Below are positions 2,659 to 10,706 of a stretch of DNA of 12,264 bases, one piece after another. A model generated the notes under the pieces. That model did not search any database, was not told the DNA's origin, and saw only the letters and a program-made list of their open reading frames with translations. This DNA is from a virus. Both the position numbers and the translations under genes were made by a program. Numbering within the stretch: the first letter of the stretch is position 1; every line of letters starts with the position of its first letter. The DNA lies in UHGV virus genome UHGV-0079336, one strand, 5' to 3'.

Positions 2659-2897
2659 TTCGGTGTTTTACTTCGACAGCCAGAATTGGGAGTCTCTATT
2701 CGTCTGGCGGCTAAAGGTGATATGGAAATCGTTATGTTTTGGCCTGAGGTAGTTGTAACTGTTGTAGCAGCTATGGCTGTGATCATCATGGTGTCCATTT
2801 ACTGGGGTTGACGACATGATTTATCCGGCGCTATATTCTGTGCGTTGCCGCAAAATCGGCACACGGGATTGGCGTCCCGGGATACTACTCAACGCAT

Positions 2898-2918
2898 ACC
2901 GCGTTAAGCGGTTTTTTT
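2898..2918 (+). terminator. weak intrinsic terminator candidate
   Basis: ACCGC-GTTAA-GCGGT hairpin followed by T7 (2912-2918). Confidence 0.3.
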
Positions 2919-3018
2919 GTGCGCTAAGCACGGCTATGCCCAAATTATGGTGGGCTGTGTGAGGGCTTCTTCGGAAGCGCCGGGTTTGAGTAGCCGGTTA
3001 CGCCAACCTTACACAGTT

Positions 3019-3049
3019 CACCACCAGTCGATTGGCGTCGTTGGTGGTG
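3019..3049 (+). promoter_or_regulatory. 8-bp inverted repeat upstream of Bro-N gene (possible operator or RNA hairpin)
   Basis: CACCACCA (3019-3026) and TGGTGGTG (3042-3049) separated by 15 nt, about 25 nt before the start at 3075. Confidence 0.25.
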
Positions 3050-3074
3050 ATGGTTAACCTGATGAGGTGATACT

Positions 3075-3683
3075 ATGACTACTCAATTAGCATTCCACAA
3101 AACGACGTTTACCCCGATTTGCCACAATAACAGAATTTGGCTTACTGCCACTGAAGTTGGTTTAGCACTGGAATATGCGGACGATAAAGCAGTTCAGCGC
3201 ATTTACTCTCGGCACTCAGATGAATTCACAGATATGATGACAAGGGTGGTCAAAGTGACCACCCCTCGTGGAATGCAGGAGTCTCGAGTATTTAGCCTTC
3301 GCGGAGCCCATTTGATCGCCATGTTTGCTCGTACTCCTGTGGCCAAAGAATTCCGCCGCTGGGTGCTGGATATTCTCGATCGAGAAGTTCAACAATCACC
3401 AATCACAAAACAATTCACTGATAACGAACTTTGCACACTCGCCTGGTTATGGCGAGCAAGTGATACGATGTTAATCGCCTGCCAGAACGTTACTCCACTT
3501 CTTCAGGTTGCGGAGCACCGCGAAGCCGGTCGCTTTACTTCTATCAGTCAGGAATATCCCCTGATACTCAGCAAGGCGCGAGCAATCCTTGCCAGAGAAA
3601 CGGCGCATGTAAAATTCCAACCGTGGCAGGATGATAAGTGGAGCAGGGTATTGCCACATTTGCGTCAGGCTAGATTGCAATAG
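3075..3683 (+). CDS. Bro-N/AntA-like antirepressor family protein (202 aa)
   Basis: GAGGTGA RBS at 3064-3070. N-terminal region (…NNRIWLTATEVGLALEYADDKAVQRIYSRHSDEF…) resembles the Bro-N/antirepressor N-terminal domain pattern. Assignment from recalled family pattern only. Confidence 0.6.
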   Translation: MTTQLAFHKTTFTPICHNNRIWLTATEVGLALEYADDKAVQRIYSRHSDEFTDMMTRVVKVTTPRGMQESRVFSLRGAHLIAMFARTPVAKEFRRWVLDILDREVQQSPITKQFTDNELCTLAWLWRASDTMLIACQNVTPLLQVAEHREAGRFTSISQEYPLILSKARAILARETAHVKFQPWQDDKWSRVLPHLRQARLQ

Positions 3684-3845: not shown

Positions 3846-4046
3846 ATGATGTATTCAGTGACTTTCGATGATACTGGACGAGTAGAAGATATTGAACTAG
3901 ATCGTGAGGTTAGAGCCGGAGATAGACTCTCTCTTAATATTGATGGTCTTGATGGTATTTATATAGTCATGACTGTTAGCGGCCCTATCTATGAAAATGT
4001 TTGTATGCCAATGAATATCCGGGTTCAAAAGTATTGGAAGCAATGA
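3846..4046 (+). CDS. hypothetical protein (66 aa)
   Basis: ATG with weak GGAAA upstream; acidic small protein; followed immediately by a strong hairpin. Confidence 0.4.
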   Translation: MMYSVTFDDTGRVEDIELDREVRAGDRLSLNIDGLDGIYIVMTVSGPIYENVCMPMNIRVQKYWKQ

Positions 4047-4051
4047 TGTAT

Positions 4052-4080
4052 AATCCCCTCAGATGCTCGAGGGGATTTTT
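4052..4080 (+). terminator. hairpin with T-run (terminator or attenuator); 3' arm overlaps the RBS of the next gene
   Basis: AATCCCCTC (4052-4060) pairs with GAGGGGATT (4069-4077) around an 8-nt loop; T5 at 4076-4080; ATG at 4081. Confidence 0.45.
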
Positions 4081-4308
4081 ATGTCAGACTGGAACATTGC
4101 AGCAAAACCGCAAAAGGAACGTGACAAGGTAAGCGTTGGCCTTGCGCTTTCAGGTGTAGCGTATAAAGAACGCCCGAACATGCCGGTTATAGCTAAACAG
4201 GTAGCTAGAGAACAACTTGGGCATCTCCGCGAGTACTTAATGGATCGCGTCCGTTATTACCGTAAGCAGAGCATCACCTTCCAAAAGCATCCGAACCACG
4301 CTACATAG
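4081..4308 (+). CDS. hypothetical protein (75 aa)
   Basis: ATG 4081 with GAGGGGA at 4069-4075. The tracked ORF start at 4063 lies in the hairpin loop and is less likely. Backbone-like GC. Confidence 0.5.
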   Translation: MSDWNIAAKPQKERDKVSVGLALSGVAYKERPNMPVIAKQVAREQLGHLREYLMDRVRYYRKQSITFQKHPNHAT

Positions 4309-4323
4309 AAATGGCAGACTTAA

Positions 4324-4911
4324 ATGCAAGAAAATGAAAAGCAAGAGCAGCATGAAACTGAACCTCAGGATTTAGATTTTCCAGCAGAATTTGACTCTCT
4401 GATTAATGCAAATGGAAAGATAACACCTGCATTGCTAACGGTAGTTAACCGGTATTTTTTATATTTTTCATTCTTTGAATCACTTCTTTTGGGGTGTTCT
4501 GGAAGTCAGGGGAAGAGTTCGAAATACGCAGCGAAATTGTTGGAATTCAAATTAGTTGATCTTGACGTTCTTAAGCGAACATACTTCTTTTTTGCAGACC
4601 GTTATCTGGCAGATGTAGTGAAGTTTGAAAACCTATGTGGTGATTTAGAGCATACATCGCAGAAGGCTAGGGATGAAAAAATTAAGGCCATGCAATTAAA
4701 GACAAACGACCCTGAAATTCAGTTAGGTGTTTGTATTTTTGTTTGTTTCAGGTTGCGAAACAACCTTTTTCATGGACCAAAATGGCGTTATTTGCTTGAT
4801 GGGCAAGAGGATTTGCTCTTAATTGCCGGAAATTTTATACATTCTATTCTATTACAGGTGCCTAGTAGAGATGGCTGGGAATTCAAGAATATTTTAACTT
4901 CTACTGATTAG
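4324..4911 (+). CDS. hypothetical AT-rich cargo protein (195 aa) with HEPN-like Rx4H motif; putative RNase/abortive-infection toxin
   Basis: ORF in an AT-rich island. Contains …CFRLRNNLFHGPKW… (R-N-x-x-x-H spacing as in HEPN RNases). Poor SD, so start is uncertain. Function is inferred from the motif only. Confidence 0.5.
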   Translation: MQENEKQEQHETEPQDLDFPAEFDSLINANGKITPALLTVVNRYFLYFSFFESLLLGCSGSQGKSSKYAAKLLEFKLVDLDVLKRTYFFFADRYLADVVKFENLCGDLEHTSQKARDEKIKAMQLKTNDPEIQLGVCIFVCFRLRNNLFHGPKWRYLLDGQEDLLLIAGNFIHSILLQVPSRDGWEFKNILTSTD

Positions 4912-7394: not shown

Positions 7395-7508
7395 CCAGGC
7401 TTGCGGGGAGCATCAACTCCGTGCTTTGTCGTTAAATTACCCCGTGAGCCTGATTTCTGACATTTAACGTCCCGGCCTTTTGTCGGCGGCGAAACATTGG
7501 CTATTCAT

Positions 7509-7814
7509 ATGCACGAAAAAGAGAGCCTTGCCGGAGCGTTCTGGCTCGTTTTGCTGATCATCGCAGGTTGGGGCGGTCTGGTCCGCTACCTGATAGATGT
7601 GAAGCAGAGTAAAGCAACGTGGAGTTGGATAAATGCTCTGGCTCAGATAGTGGTATCAGGATTCACCGGTGTTATTGGTGGCCTGATCAGCATCGAAAGT
7701 GGATTCAGTATTTACATGATTCTCGCGACAGCGGGGATTAGTGGTGCGATGGGTTCGGTTGCACTGACGTACTTCTGGGAACGACTGACAGGGGTGAAAA
7801 ATGCAAAATCTTAA
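7509..7814 (+). CDS. holin (three predicted transmembrane segments)
   Basis: Three hydrophobic stretches (FWLVLLIIAGWGGLV, WINALAQIVVSGFTGVIGGLI, IYMILATAGISGAMGSVALTYF). Directly upstream of the endolysin with overlapping stop/start. Alternative TTG start at 7497. Confidence 0.75.
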   Translation: MHEKESLAGAFWLVLLIIAGWGGLVRYLIDVKQSKATWSWINALAQIVVSGFTGVIGGLISIESGFSIYMILATAGISGAMGSVALTYFWERLTGVKNAKS

Positions 7815-8277
7815 TCCTCAGCGTAAGGCTTTCCTCGATATGGTGGCATGGTCAGAAGGAACGGATAACGGGCGACAACCGACACGTAATCACGGTTATG
7901 ATGTTATTGTTGGCGGCGAACTGTTTACTGATTACTCTGATCACCCTCGCAAACTTGTCACGTTAAACCCCAAACTCAAATCAACAGCCGCCGGACGTTA
8001 TCAGCTTCTTTCACGCTGGTGGGATGCTTACCGTAAACAGCTTGGTTTGAAAGACTTCTCCCCCAAAAGCCAGGACGCAGTGGCATTGCAGCAGATTAAA
8101 GAGCGTGGCGCTTTACCGATGATTGATCGCGGTGATATCCGTCAGGCTATCGATCGTTGCAGCAATATCTGGGCGTCGTTACCTGGTGCAGGTTACGGTC
8201 AGTATGAACATAAAATCGGTGACCTGATTTCCCGGTTTAAAGAGGTTGGCGGGGTGGTAAATGAAGTTGAGCTATAA
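7801..8277 (+). CDS. R: endolysin, lambda R-like lytic transglycosylase (158 aa)
   Basis: Translation MQNLNPQRKAFLDMVAWSEGTDNGRQPTRNHGYDVIVGGELFTDYSDHPRKLV… is near-identical to lambda R over most of its length, as recalled. Confidence 0.93.
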   Translation: MQNLNPQRKAFLDMVAWSEGTDNGRQPTRNHGYDVIVGGELFTDYSDHPRKLVTLNPKLKSTAAGRYQLLSRWWDAYRKQLGLKDFSPKSQDAVALQQIKERGALPMIDRGDIRQAIDRCSNIWASLPGAGYGQYEHKIGDLISRFKEVGGVVNEVEL

Positions 8278-8722
8278 GCTAGTTATCGCTGCTTTCTTCG
8301 TTACTATTATTGGTTCTTTCATCTGGTCAGCGAATCATTACCACAATCAAGCCATTGAATACAAAAAGCAGCGCGACGAAAACGCTATGGCATTACATTC
8401 GGCTATGGCGACGATCTCTGATATGCAGAAGCGTCAACGTGACGTAGCTGAACTTGACGCCAGATACACAAAGGAGCTTGCTGATGCTAACACGACTCTC
8501 GAAAGTCTCCGTACTGATGTCTCTGCTGGTCGTAAGCGCTTGCAAATCGCCGCCACCTGTGCAAAGTCAACGACCGGAGCCAGCGGCATGGGCTATGGAG
8601 AAAGTCCAAGACTTACAGCTGATGCTGAACTCAATTATTACCGCCTCCGAAGTGGGATCGACAAGATAACTGCACAGGTTAACTACTTGCAGGAGTACAT
8701 CAAGACACAGTGCCAGAAATGA
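8261..8722 (+). CDS. Rz: Rz i-spanin (153 aa)
   Basis: N-terminal TM segment, then …NHYHNQAIEYKKQRDENA…MQKRQRDVAELDARYTKELADA…, resembling lambda Rz. Overlaps the R stop. Confidence 0.9.
   Translation: MKLSYKLVIAAFFVTIIGSFIWSANHYHNQAIEYKKQRDENAMALHSAMATISDMQKRQRDVAELDARYTKELADANTTLESLRTDVSAGRKRLQIAATCAKSTTGASGMGYGESPRLTADAELNYYRLRSGIDKITAQVNYLQEYIKTQCQK
8484..8669 (+). CDS. Rz1: Rz1 o-spanin lipoprotein, embedded in Rz in the +1 frame
   Basis: ATG 8484 with AAGGAG at 8471-8476. Lipoprotein-like signal …LLVVSAC followed by a Pro-rich segment (KSPPPVQSQRPEPAAW). The tracked ORF begins at 8454, but the RBS supports 8484. Confidence 0.8.
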   Translation: MLTRLSKVSVLMSLLVVSACKSPPPVQSQRPEPAAWAMEKVQDLQLMLNSIITASEVGSTR

Positions 8723-8730
8723 ATCTATAG

Positions 8731-8758
8731 ATGACACTCCACGTTCGTATAAGATAAT
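8731..8758 (+). promoter_or_regulatory. candidate sigma70 promoter for the moron gene
   Basis: ATGACA (8731-8736), 16-bp spacer, GATAAT (8753-8758), about 37 nt upstream of ATG 8795. Confidence 0.4.
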
Positions 8759-8794
8759 GCTAAATTACTATTAGCTTAATCACAGGAGACGGAC

Positions 8795-9658
8795 ATGGAA
8801 AGAGGTGTGGTATTTAGTGCATGCGAATTACTTAAAACCGAGGATGGAAAAGGCATCCGTACAGGTAAATGGATTAGTCAATTAGAAATAAACTATCTAT
8901 GTCTTTATTGGGATAAACTAGTTTCACCCACTAATAATATTATACATACAGCATTAAATAACGAGGATGAATTAGAAAAATGTGGATTGCTAACCAGACC
9001 TGTATATAGACATCATGGTTGTTTTGATGGCCAATATATGGCTGATTTTTATGCTGAAACTCATGCCAAAACAATAGATATACTTAGGCATGCGGATTCT
9101 TCTGTCGATTGGCGCATGCATTTTTTAAGTGACCAAATAAACTTGGTGCCTGAATTATCTAGAACCTCAGAAGTGATACGTTTTGAGCTAGCAAATTTAT
9201 TACCCGTTCCCACAGAAGATGTGCACCTACATGATATTCTTGATTTCAAGGAAAGAAGAAAACCTGAATTAATCGCTTTACATGAATATCTTGATGAGCT
9301 TTACTTGGAAATAAAACGTTCTGGTGATATCAATCTTCAGAAAGCAAAAGCTCTTTCTAATCTTAAACAAGCAATAAAGGATATTGAACGCTTAAATTGT
9401 GAAGTGTGGAAAAGTCCAATAAAATTTAGCATCTCCACTTCCTTTGAGTTCGATTTTTCACAAATATTTAGTCTGGCGGGAACTGTTTTATCTATGTCAG
9501 TAGATTATCCTTATAATGTTATTGGAGGGGTAAGTAGTTTTGCTTATTTTTTGGGAGGATGCATAAAAATAAAGCCACAATTTCAACAAGTGTTATCATT
9601 AGGTAATGATAAATTAGTTTACATAAGCAAAGGAAAATCGGAGGGTATTATTTCCTGA
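8795..9658 (+). CDS. hypothetical moron protein (287 aa), AT-rich cargo between Rz and HNH/terminase
   Basis: Strong RBS AGGAGA at 8784-8789. Long ORF in an AT-rich island with its own promoter-like hexamers. No P-loop or other motif recognised. Confidence 0.7.
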   Translation: MERGVVFSACELLKTEDGKGIRTGKWISQLEINYLCLYWDKLVSPTNNIIHTALNNEDELEKCGLLTRPVYRHHGCFDGQYMADFYAETHAKTIDILRHADSSVDWRMHFLSDQINLVPELSRTSEVIRFELANLLPVPTEDVHLHDILDFKERRKPELIALHEYLDELYLEIKRSGDINLQKAKALSNLKQAIKDIERLNCEVWKSPIKFSISTSFEFDFSQIFSLAGTVLSMSVDYPYNVIGGVSSFAYFLGGCIKIKPQFQQVLSLGNDKLVYISKGKSEGIIS

Positions 9659-9734
9659 TTTTTGATTCTCATAATCAATGAATGTTTTTTGTGAATATAC
9701 TTATTTTAACCCTATAAATAATCAAGGTAATAAA

Positions 9735-10085
9735 GTGCCTCCTCGTATCCCGAAAGCCTGCCGTGCTCGAGGTTGCCGTAATACCACCACAGACCCGTCA
9801 GGCTACTGCGAAAGCCACAAAAGCGAAGGCTGGAAGCAATACAAGCCAGGCCAGTCCCGACACCAGCGCGGTTATGGTGCGAAATGGGATGTTATCCGTG
9901 AACGTGTGCTCAAGCGTGACAAAGGCCTGTGTCAGTTGTGTTTGCGTGCCGGTGTGGTGCGCGAGGCGAAAACCGTTGACCACATCATCCCTAAAGCACA
10001 TGGCGGCACTGATGCCGACAGTAATCTGCAGAGTCTGTGCTGGCCGTGTCATAAGGCGAAGACGGCCCGTGAACGGTTAAAGTGA
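9735..10085 (+). CDS. HNH endonuclease (terminase-associated, HK97 gp74-like)
   Basis: GTG 9735 with AAGG at 9724-9727, where composition switches from AT-rich to GC-rich; the tracked ATG at 9678 is probably an overextension. Cys/His motif: CRARGC…CESH…DHIIPKAHGGTD…NLQSLCWPCHKAK. Confidence 0.85.
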   Translation: MPPRIPKACRARGCRNTTTDPSGYCESHKSEGWKQYKPGQSRHQRGYGAKWDVIRERVLKRDKGLCQLCLRAGVVREAKTVDHIIPKAHGGTDADSNLQSLCWPCHKAKTARERLK

Positions 10086-10112
10086 TAATAATTCTCAACT
10101 GTCTGTGGGGGA

Positions 10113-10172
10113 GGGGCGGGTCAAATCCCTGTGACCTGACGTCTTCCGGACTGCCCGCCCCATCGTTTTTTT
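10113..10172 (+). terminator. GC-rich hairpin plus T7 between HNH and terS (terminator and/or part of the cos packaging region)
   Basis: GGGGCGGG (10113-10120) pairs with CCCGCCCC (10154-10161) across a 33-nt loop; T7 at 10166-10172. The position matches where cos lies in HK97-like phages. Confidence 0.35.
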
Positions 10173-10211
10173 ATACCCGCGAAAAATGAAATTTAACCAG
10201 GAGTGCCGCAT

Positions 10212-10706
10212 ATGGCTGGAACGGCGGGGCGTTCCGGGCGTCGCCCCAAGCCAACGGCGCGCAAGGCGCTGGCCGGAAACCCCGGCAAGCGAGCCCTGAA
10301 CAAAGATGAACCTGTTTTTACGCCCATCAAAGGTGTTGAGCCACCGGAGTGGTTCGCAGAAGAAGATCTCCCTCTCGCCACGATCATGTGGCAACTGACA
10401 ACCAAAGAACTCTGCGGTCAGGGCCTGCTGTGCGTGACTGACCTGGCGGTACTTGAGCGGTGGTGCGTGGCCTATGAGTTCTGGCGACGTGCCGTGAAAA
10501 ATATTGCCAGCCAGGGCAACACCATCACCGGTGCAATGGGCGGCAGGGTCAAAAACCCGGAGCTGACCGCCAAGAAAGAACAGGAGTCCGAGATGAGCAG
10601 CACGGGGGCAATGCTCGGACTCGACCCCAGCAGCCGCCAGCGTCTGATAGGCCTGGCGGGGCAGAAGAAAGCCACTAACCCGTTTCTGAAAATCATCGAA
10701 TCATGA
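10212..10706 (+). CDS. terS: terminase small subunit (P27/HK97 gp1 family)
   Basis: ATG 10212 with AGGAG at 10198-10202; the tracked GTG at 10203 has no spacer. N-terminus [34 protein letters not shown] is typical of P27-family small terminases. Confidence 0.85.

Follow-up and report, generated by a model that had tools for sequence, protein, structure and literature searches.

Phage morons, as defined by Hendrix and colleagues, include bor and lom of lambda and the morons of HK97. The gene considered here lies at 8795-9658 on the plus strand of the window (the whole stretch of 12,264 nucleotides analysed, from UHGV virus genome UHGV-0079336). Like the morons, it is an extra gene of atypical base composition, situated between genes which in related phages are either adjacent or separated by different cargo. 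It is co-oriented with the late operon and, at the sequence level, has a promoter of its own. It differs from them in that the window allele lacks a terminator, and its expression in the lysogen is something we infer. A second parallel is provided by the e, soc, 49 and I-TevI genes of bacteriophage T4, where long transcripts have their start site hidden in a hairpin whose 5' arm contains the promoter (PMC3014915). In most relatives of the window gene the Shine-Dalgarno sequence is similarly predicted to pair with an arm whose start lies 1-6 nt 3' of the -10 element. Unlike the T4 genes, however, these relatives have a promoter of the host sigma-70 type, and the timing would be reversed, with the start site open in lysogeny and closed in late transcripts. 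Moreover, the window allele has no local hairpin but a predicted long-range stem.

The prophage defence proteins BstA, GiPD474, PD-Lambda-1 and Rst_DUF4238 are likewise encoded by stand-alone genes in prophage cargo slots (PMC8585504, PMC12724215), although no PADLOC model resembles the window protein in sequence. Kinship with the Gifsy defence protein GiPD474 was considered and rejected, as GiPD474 has an ATPase domain and the window protein has none. The closest match of all is to Pfam DUF6236 and PHROG 23128, with which the window protein shares its length, its single-domain architecture and its motifs. Both are catalogued families without an assigned function.

The window belongs to a lambdoid Escherichia coli prophage with a packaging module of the HK97/P27 type. 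Its gene order begins with an AT-rich STAND-like gene, the isrK and C4 RNAs, an anti-repressor, NinB, YbcO and RusA, and ends with antiterminator Q, holin, endolysin, Rz, a cargo island, an HNH endonuclease, a P27-type terS and TerL. Upstream of the island lies the lysis cassette, made up of a LydA holin (7497-7814; Pfam, 8e-22), an endolysin (7801-8277) and, as its last gene, the Rz spanin (8261-8722, plus strand; Pfam Phage_lysis, 7.6e-39). An ORF in another frame of Rz (8454-8669) contains a lipobox-like LLVVSAC and presumably encodes the Rz1 o-spanin. On the other side are the HNH endonuclease, annotated as such by RefSeq (9735-10085, plus strand; Pfam HNH, 3e-16), terS (10203-10706; Pfam Terminase_4, 1e-20) and TerL, which begins at 10703 and contains ATPase and nuclease domains according to Pfam.

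An AT-rich island of about 1 kb had been predicted at this Rz/terminase junction, and it was borne out by both the GC profile and the homology breakpoints. The GC content is 0.30-0.36 across 8700-9750, compared to 0.45-0.51 upstream and 0.53-0.61 downstream. The predicted ORF for a 287-aa protein (8795-9658; ATG start, TGA stop) is present as described, with a GC content of 0.339 and a GC3 of 0.229, against 0.472 and 0.494 for Rz, 0.515 and 0.507 for HNH, and 0.599 and 0.685 for terS. The DUF6236 genes of relatives also have a base composition unlike that of the flanking phage genes. Megablast found the whole segment in 31 of 5,426 complete E. coli genomes at 99.7-99.9% identity, always on the chromosome, where RefSeq labels the product 'DUF6236 family protein'. 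In the other matching E. coli genomes homology is restricted to the flanks: it comprises the end of Rz, as far as the stop codon at about 8724, or sets in at 9736. The HNH gene starts with a GTG codon, placed by RefSeq at position 9735 of the window. These breakpoints delimit the island as 8725-9734, bounded by the stop codon of Rz and the start codon of HNH. No deposited phage genome was found to carry this DUF6236 allele, and a search of the island against Rfam gave no match.

Other parts of the window also contain AT-rich cargo. A second island (510-2463, GC about 0.32) encodes a STAND/NACHT-like NTPase in two ORFs in different frames, 510-986, which contains the Walker A motif, and 997-2463. 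In phrog_18297 the two align one after the other, with profile positions 40-153 and 164-473, and they are therefore probably a single frameshifted defence-like cargo gene. Further downstream, Rfam identified an isrK sRNA (2846-2918; 58.7 bits) and a C4 antisense RNA (2943-3028; 74.8 bits), directly followed by an anti-repressor gene with Bro-N and P22_AR_C domains (3075-3683). This region (2846-3683) looks like an anti-repressor control module of the P1 immI or Gifsy type. A third AT-rich ORF (4324-4911; 195 aa, GC 0.37) is preceded by small ORFs at 3846-4046 and 4063-4308. Its sole match was to phrog_27260, to which no function is assigned, and there was none in Pfam, PADLOC or NCBIfam; it may be another moron-like insert. 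In the E. coli 30EVA1 prophage, which carries an identical DUF6236 island, a KwaB-like (Kiwa) gene and a hypothetical gene are found on the opposite strand between Q and holin (locus L001, 9130-10541), where the window is non-coding.

The window protein matches Pfam DUF6236 (PF19749) with 109.7 bits against a gathering cut-off of 26.2 (E = 2e-31), and all 130 aligned relatives match the family too. Its match to phrog_23128 (E = 5e-144) is full-length, residues 1-285 aligning with all 288 positions of the profile. When 1.84 billion representatives were searched with a profile, 1,727 clusters were recovered at E <= 1e-3 and 405 at E <= 1e-30, each cluster being represented by one sequence at 50% identity. 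Nearly all family members are 275-300 aa long and share a single architecture with the 287-aa window protein. No domain fusions were detected, and a profile search with the N-terminal domain gave fragments only. Among close relatives the median dN/dS is 0.20 (range 0.06-0.61), and the gene is real and under selective constraint. The original prediction had regarded it as a candidate for a previously undescribed single-gene function. The family had in fact already been catalogued as DUF6236 and PHROG 23128, and annotated by RefSeq in the 31 genomes mentioned above. Searches for a function gave little: the window protein has no match in NCBIfam and none in PADLOC-DB 2.0 at E <= 0.1, the 130 relatives gave only isolated weak PADLOC matches with one member per model, and no paper in the literature searched names DUF6236 or PF19749.

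The window protein has a pI of 5.7 and no signal peptide, and its length fits the range of about 280-340 aa taken for a single-domain family member. Residues conserved in at least 90% of the 130 sequences are R3, G4, L37-D40, P45, W106, P137, P139, F151, K152, Y170, D178 and Y276, and the conserved clusters are R3-G4, LYWD (37-40), P45, D105-W106, LPVP (136-139), FKxRR (151-155), Y170, D178 and Y276. In the AlphaFold model md4532fab0024, residues 1-137 (8795-9205, plus strand) form an N-terminal alpha/beta domain predicted with a pLDDT of 88-98, which includes the first five of these clusters. It is followed by a helical region (residues 145-204; 9227-9406, plus strand) with an ILEFKERR motif and conserved H163, D167, Y170 and D178. 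A Gly/Ala/Ser-rich segment (residues ~225-260; 9467-9574, plus strand), recognized from hydropathy and composition, lies towards the C-terminus and is the hydrophobicity maximum of each of the 130 members. The peak 19-residue hydropathy falls at 0.77-0.84 of the length, with a median of 1.47, and exceeds 1.6 in 29 of the 130. The model has low confidence at residues 232-247, and in the better model the C-terminus consists mostly of beta strands. As modelled, the protein begins with an alpha/beta part that contains the invariant Trp-Asp pairs, continues with helices and ends in a beta region. A classic transmembrane helix was rejected for the window protein, whose hydropathy peak is 1.25. Judging from hydropathy and composition, contact of a C-terminal hydrophobic loop of small residues with the membrane is possible but unsupported. 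Neither the protein itself nor a profile of 130 sequences retrieved more from PDB sequences than chance matches to 14-3-3 proteins (E > 0.3). As in the original prediction, no catalytic motif was recognized on reanalysis, and remote-homology and structure searches found no homology to a housekeeping or structural phage protein.

According to the original prediction, lambdoid phages carry lysogenic-conversion or defence genes at the Rz/terminase junction, and related prophages do hold different genes there. In E. coli 042 the Rz-to-packaging slot contains a gene for an 83-aa hypothetical protein. Other related prophages have genes for sce7726 and a beta-family protein, or for Rha with others; in the E. 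coli WP5-S17-ESBL-10 prophage, for example, the slot between Rz and terminase is filled by a gene pair of the sce7726 and beta families (locus L020, 4540-6169). Enterobacterial homologs of the window protein with 45-73% identity, from Klebsiella, Citrobacter, Leclercia, Lelliottia and Cronobacter, are all encoded where the lysis genes end and the packaging genes begin. The gene is found across Enterobacteriaceae, and the holins, endolysins and spanins beside it belong to different families. Across 37 non-redundant viral contigs the gene mostly follows lysis genes. On its downstream side are packaging genes such as HNH with TerL, lambda gpA/Nu1, DUF1441, DUF2280 and gp3, or else a P2-like tail module comes to its end there. 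These unrelated packaging types imply a preference for the junction and not for HNH, and on the same grounds the idea that the gene is functionally linked to the HNH/terminase module was discarded.

As to whether homologs always occupy the slot between Rz and terminase, the enterobacterial ones keep to the lysis/packaging junction, whereas more distant homologs are found elsewhere. One adjoins the integrase in Klebsiella phage Mulock, and in two Vibrio phages the homolog is located at the prophage end, after the tail-fibre genes. Homologs are also carried by Vibrio plasmids, one of them near RelBE, and by small Acinetobacter plasmids. On the latter, the gene was found once 20 nt 3' of an Abi_2/RiboL-PSP-HEPN gene, namely on pALWED1.3 of Acinetobacter lwoffii, where the upstream gene encodes a 345-aa protein (locus L004, 6934-7971). 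This short gap suggests that the HEPN and DUF6236 genes may form an operon; the pairing was seen on Acinetobacter plasmids only. Chromosomal homologs, from many phyla, are isolated among ordinary genes. Neighbour clustering at about 50 loci and Pfam tallies revealed no recurrent partner gene: 109 Pfam families were counted, each in at most two of the 124 neighbour proteins scanned. PADLOC, applied to the same 124 proteins, which come from diverse loci, gave scattered matches to 36 models with one or two proteins each, including PD-Lambda-1, methyltransferases and PDC candidates; defence genes are thus not clearly enriched among the neighbours. The family spreads alone among phages, plasmids and chromosomes and has no conserved partner gene.

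The original prediction also gave the gene its own promoter, consisting of ATGACA (8731-8736), a 16-nt spacer and GATAAT (8753-8758) on the plus strand. This pair matches 10 of 12 consensus positions; however, only 2 promoter-like sites were observed in 8400-10300 against 4.0 +/- 2.0 in shuffles, and the -35 hexamer ATGACA is not conserved in relatives. What relatives do share is a putative extended -10 element, which in the window is TGCTAAATT (8758-8766, plus strand) and overlaps GATAAT. The corresponding box in relatives is typically GATAATGCTAnATTA, with the invariant part TGnTAnnnT. The comparison was made with 90 non-redundant upstream regions, 42 from the closest clade and 48 from more distant members. 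In 35 of the 42, TGnTAnnnT ends 24-36 nt 5' of the ATG, where 200 dinucleotide shuffles gave an expectation of 1.10 +/- 0.96 and a maximum of 4; it occurs in only 2 of the 48. Many relatives moreover have TTCACT 18 nt 5' of the extended -10 box. The case for a promoter comes from this comparison with relatives, since the hexamer match alone is not above chance. A promoter of the gene's own is therefore upheld as a predicted sigma-70 extended -10 element, conserved at a fixed distance before the gene, and the ATGACA/GATAAT pair is not its defining element. From the usual spacing of about 7 nt, transcription is predicted to start near 8772-8775. An exact reverse-complement copy of the box ATGCTAAATT (8757-8766) is present inside the ORF at 9423-9432 and would read as an antisense extended -10 element on the minus strand. 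It was rejected as a signal, as such a copy is at chance level in AT-rich DNA, and five ten-base inverted repeats were found.

The leader was then considered both as the short RNA expected from this promoter and as part of a longer transcript. The strong ribosome binding site described previously, AGGAGA, is found at 8784-8789 on the plus strand, 5 nt 5' of the ATG. It is unpaired in the fold of the short promoter-proximal leader (8767-8800), which reaches only -0.5 kcal/mol, and the window allele has no local hairpin (MFE 0.0 and -0.5). A long RNA spanning 8723-8800 is predicted to fold at -15.8 kcal/mol (z = -2.44), a stability matched by 3 of 200 shuffles. In this single-sequence fold a long-range stem is predicted, whose 5' arm (UCCA, GUUCGU; 8738-8748, plus strand) pairs with a 3' arm (8789-8799, plus strand) covering the AUG and the spacer between it and the Shine-Dalgarno sequence. 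Only transcripts initiated further upstream would be able to form such a stem.

In the relatives a local hairpin is predicted between the -10 box and the ATG, formed by the purines of the Shine-Dalgarno sequence and an arm rich in C and U, and at least three Shine-Dalgarno G residues are paired at 24 of 35 loci. Downstream of the -10 element, the 5' arm extends from 1-6 nt to 6-15 nt. The arm sequences vary by locus and yet remain complementary, as in CCTCTCT/AGAGAGG, CCCCA/TGGGG, CCTG/CAGG, GTCC/GGAC and CCUUAG/CUGAGG. RNAalifold found no structure in a MAFFT alignment of the leaders, because the helices are out of register, and per-sequence folds, a swap test and a comparison with control genes were used instead. 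In the swap test, based on unbiased representatives of 20 sequence classes split at the midpoint, native leaders had a mean MFE of -6.67 kcal/mol compared to -4.81 +/- 0.49 with permuted 3' halves, and none of 3,000 permutations reached the native value. Sequestration of the Shine-Dalgarno sequence was found in 14 of the 20 classes and in 50 of 220 other genes from the same loci (Fisher p = 3e-5). One viral contig differs from the rest of the clade, as its hairpin (locus L113, 4960-5003) pairs the -10 box itself (AATGCTAGATT / AATCTTAGCATT) and not the Shine-Dalgarno sequence.

The position of the promoter relative to the hairpin would determine its effect. A transcript of the gene's own that starts about 7 nt after the -10 element would lack most of the 5' arm, so that, by these spacing rules, only transcripts derived from upstream in the late operon would be closed by the hairpin. 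Were GATAAT the true -10, the gene's own mRNA would instead begin with the hairpin, whose effect would be limited to damping translation. Read-through from the late operon is expected in the window, as no terminator was found on either side of the gene and it is thus also part of the late transcript; among relatives, a terminator follows the gene in 18 of 46. The description of the locus as a classic moron layout therefore applies to its foreign composition, its variable slot and its conserved promoter element, and is incomplete in the window allele for want of a terminator. With these corrections, a different promoter element and an absent terminator, the moron reading is well supported.

From these features, it is proposed that the island is a self-contained accessory moron cassette which encodes a cytoplasmic, stand-alone DUF6236 protein, expressed in the lysogen, silenced late and acting against incoming phages; this reading is preferred tentatively, at somewhat less than an even chance of being right. 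The gene would be transcribed in the lysogen from its own promoter, and the short leader, predicted to be unstructured and furnished with a strong Shine-Dalgarno sequence, would leave the start site open, so that the protein would be made during lysogeny. In read-through transcripts of the late operon the translation start would be folded away. Most relatives would achieve this with the local co-varying hairpin that hides the Shine-Dalgarno sequence, and whose 5' arm coincides with the predicted start of the promoter's transcript; in the window allele the predicted long-range stem over the AUG may do the same job. A gene that is on in the lysogen and off in lytic growth would most likely counter incoming phages by exclusion or abortive infection. 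An anti-phage role is favoured because the gene is autonomous, mobile between types of element and found in cargo slots, because in at least one case it adjoins an Abi-type gene, and because most relatives appear to be built for silence in late transcription. This genomic context makes defence or exclusion a plausible candidate for its function. The broader suggestion that DUF6236 is a new, widespread single-gene anti-phage family, with a fold so far unseen in solved structures, carried by temperate phages at the lysis/packaging junction and restricted to lysogeny by means of a host-type promoter inside the leader hairpin, is doubtful at present.

The patchy horizontal spread over plasmids, prophages and chromosomes of many phyla would also be consistent with a function directed at the host or at maintenance of the element, such as toxin-like addiction, stress or competition, in place of phage defence. 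RelBE is found nearby on a Vibrio plasmid, and tight translational control of the kind predicted in relatives is typical where over-expression is harmful. However, no antitoxin-like partner or conserved neighbour accompanies the gene, and no similarity to known toxin families was found, which makes this explanation unlikely, although it is the strongest of the alternatives.

In an alternative closer to the phage itself, the protein would be an accessory factor of the late programme, produced from the late transcript to help lysis or packaging. The enterobacterial gene is always co-oriented with the late operon, between lysis and packaging genes, and in the window it has no terminator on either side. 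Yet the lysis and terminase modules beside the gene are of many unrelated kinds, which leaves it without a consistent partner, and related phages with the same packaging module do without the gene. Homologs beside an integrase, after tail fibres, on plasmids and alone in chromosomes are equally hard to reconcile with such a role, and the conserved hairpin would specifically stop translation from late transcripts. A late accessory factor is accordingly regarded as rather improbable.

Phage accessory slots often have mixed contents, with defence and anti-defence genes side by side. A counter-defence protein, acting against the defence systems of the host, is a further alternative. In a Leclercia prophage, a gene of the Acb2/Tad1-hairpin family, a family of anti-CBASS/anti-Thoeris sponges, lies in the same slot two genes upstream of DUF6236 (locus L071, 3147-3440). 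Against this, the window protein is large for a sponge or inhibitor, the gene also occurs outside phages on plasmids and in chromosomes, and it is located at the late end of the genome and not among the early genes. Moreover, the hairpin logic predicts silence during lytic growth, and a counter-defence function is considered very improbable. Least supported of all, and likewise very improbable, is a signal sensor in which a CARF-like or other Rossmann-like N-terminal domain would be joined to a membrane-active C-terminus: the weak alpha/beta resemblance to such sensors was seen in a low-confidence model only and was lost with the confident one, no ligand-binding motifs were recognized, and structural comparison gave no significant match to a solved CARF or Rossmann-like member.

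Returning to the reading of the island as a lysogen-expressed cassette against incoming phages, the regulatory layout is the most informative new result; the family, its annotation and the type of slot were already known. Without a phenotype, the gene would be an ordinary prophage cargo gene of the kind already present in the RefSeq annotation. If DUF6236 proteins do act in defence or exclusion, a function could be assigned to about 1,700 clusters from many bacterial phyla, prophages and plasmids and a role to a fold that the PDB lacks, and the junction between lysis and packaging genes would be confirmed as a productive place to hunt for immunity genes. The regulatory layout of the relatives would show how prophage cargo can be active in the lysogen and silenced during the prophage's own lytic growth.
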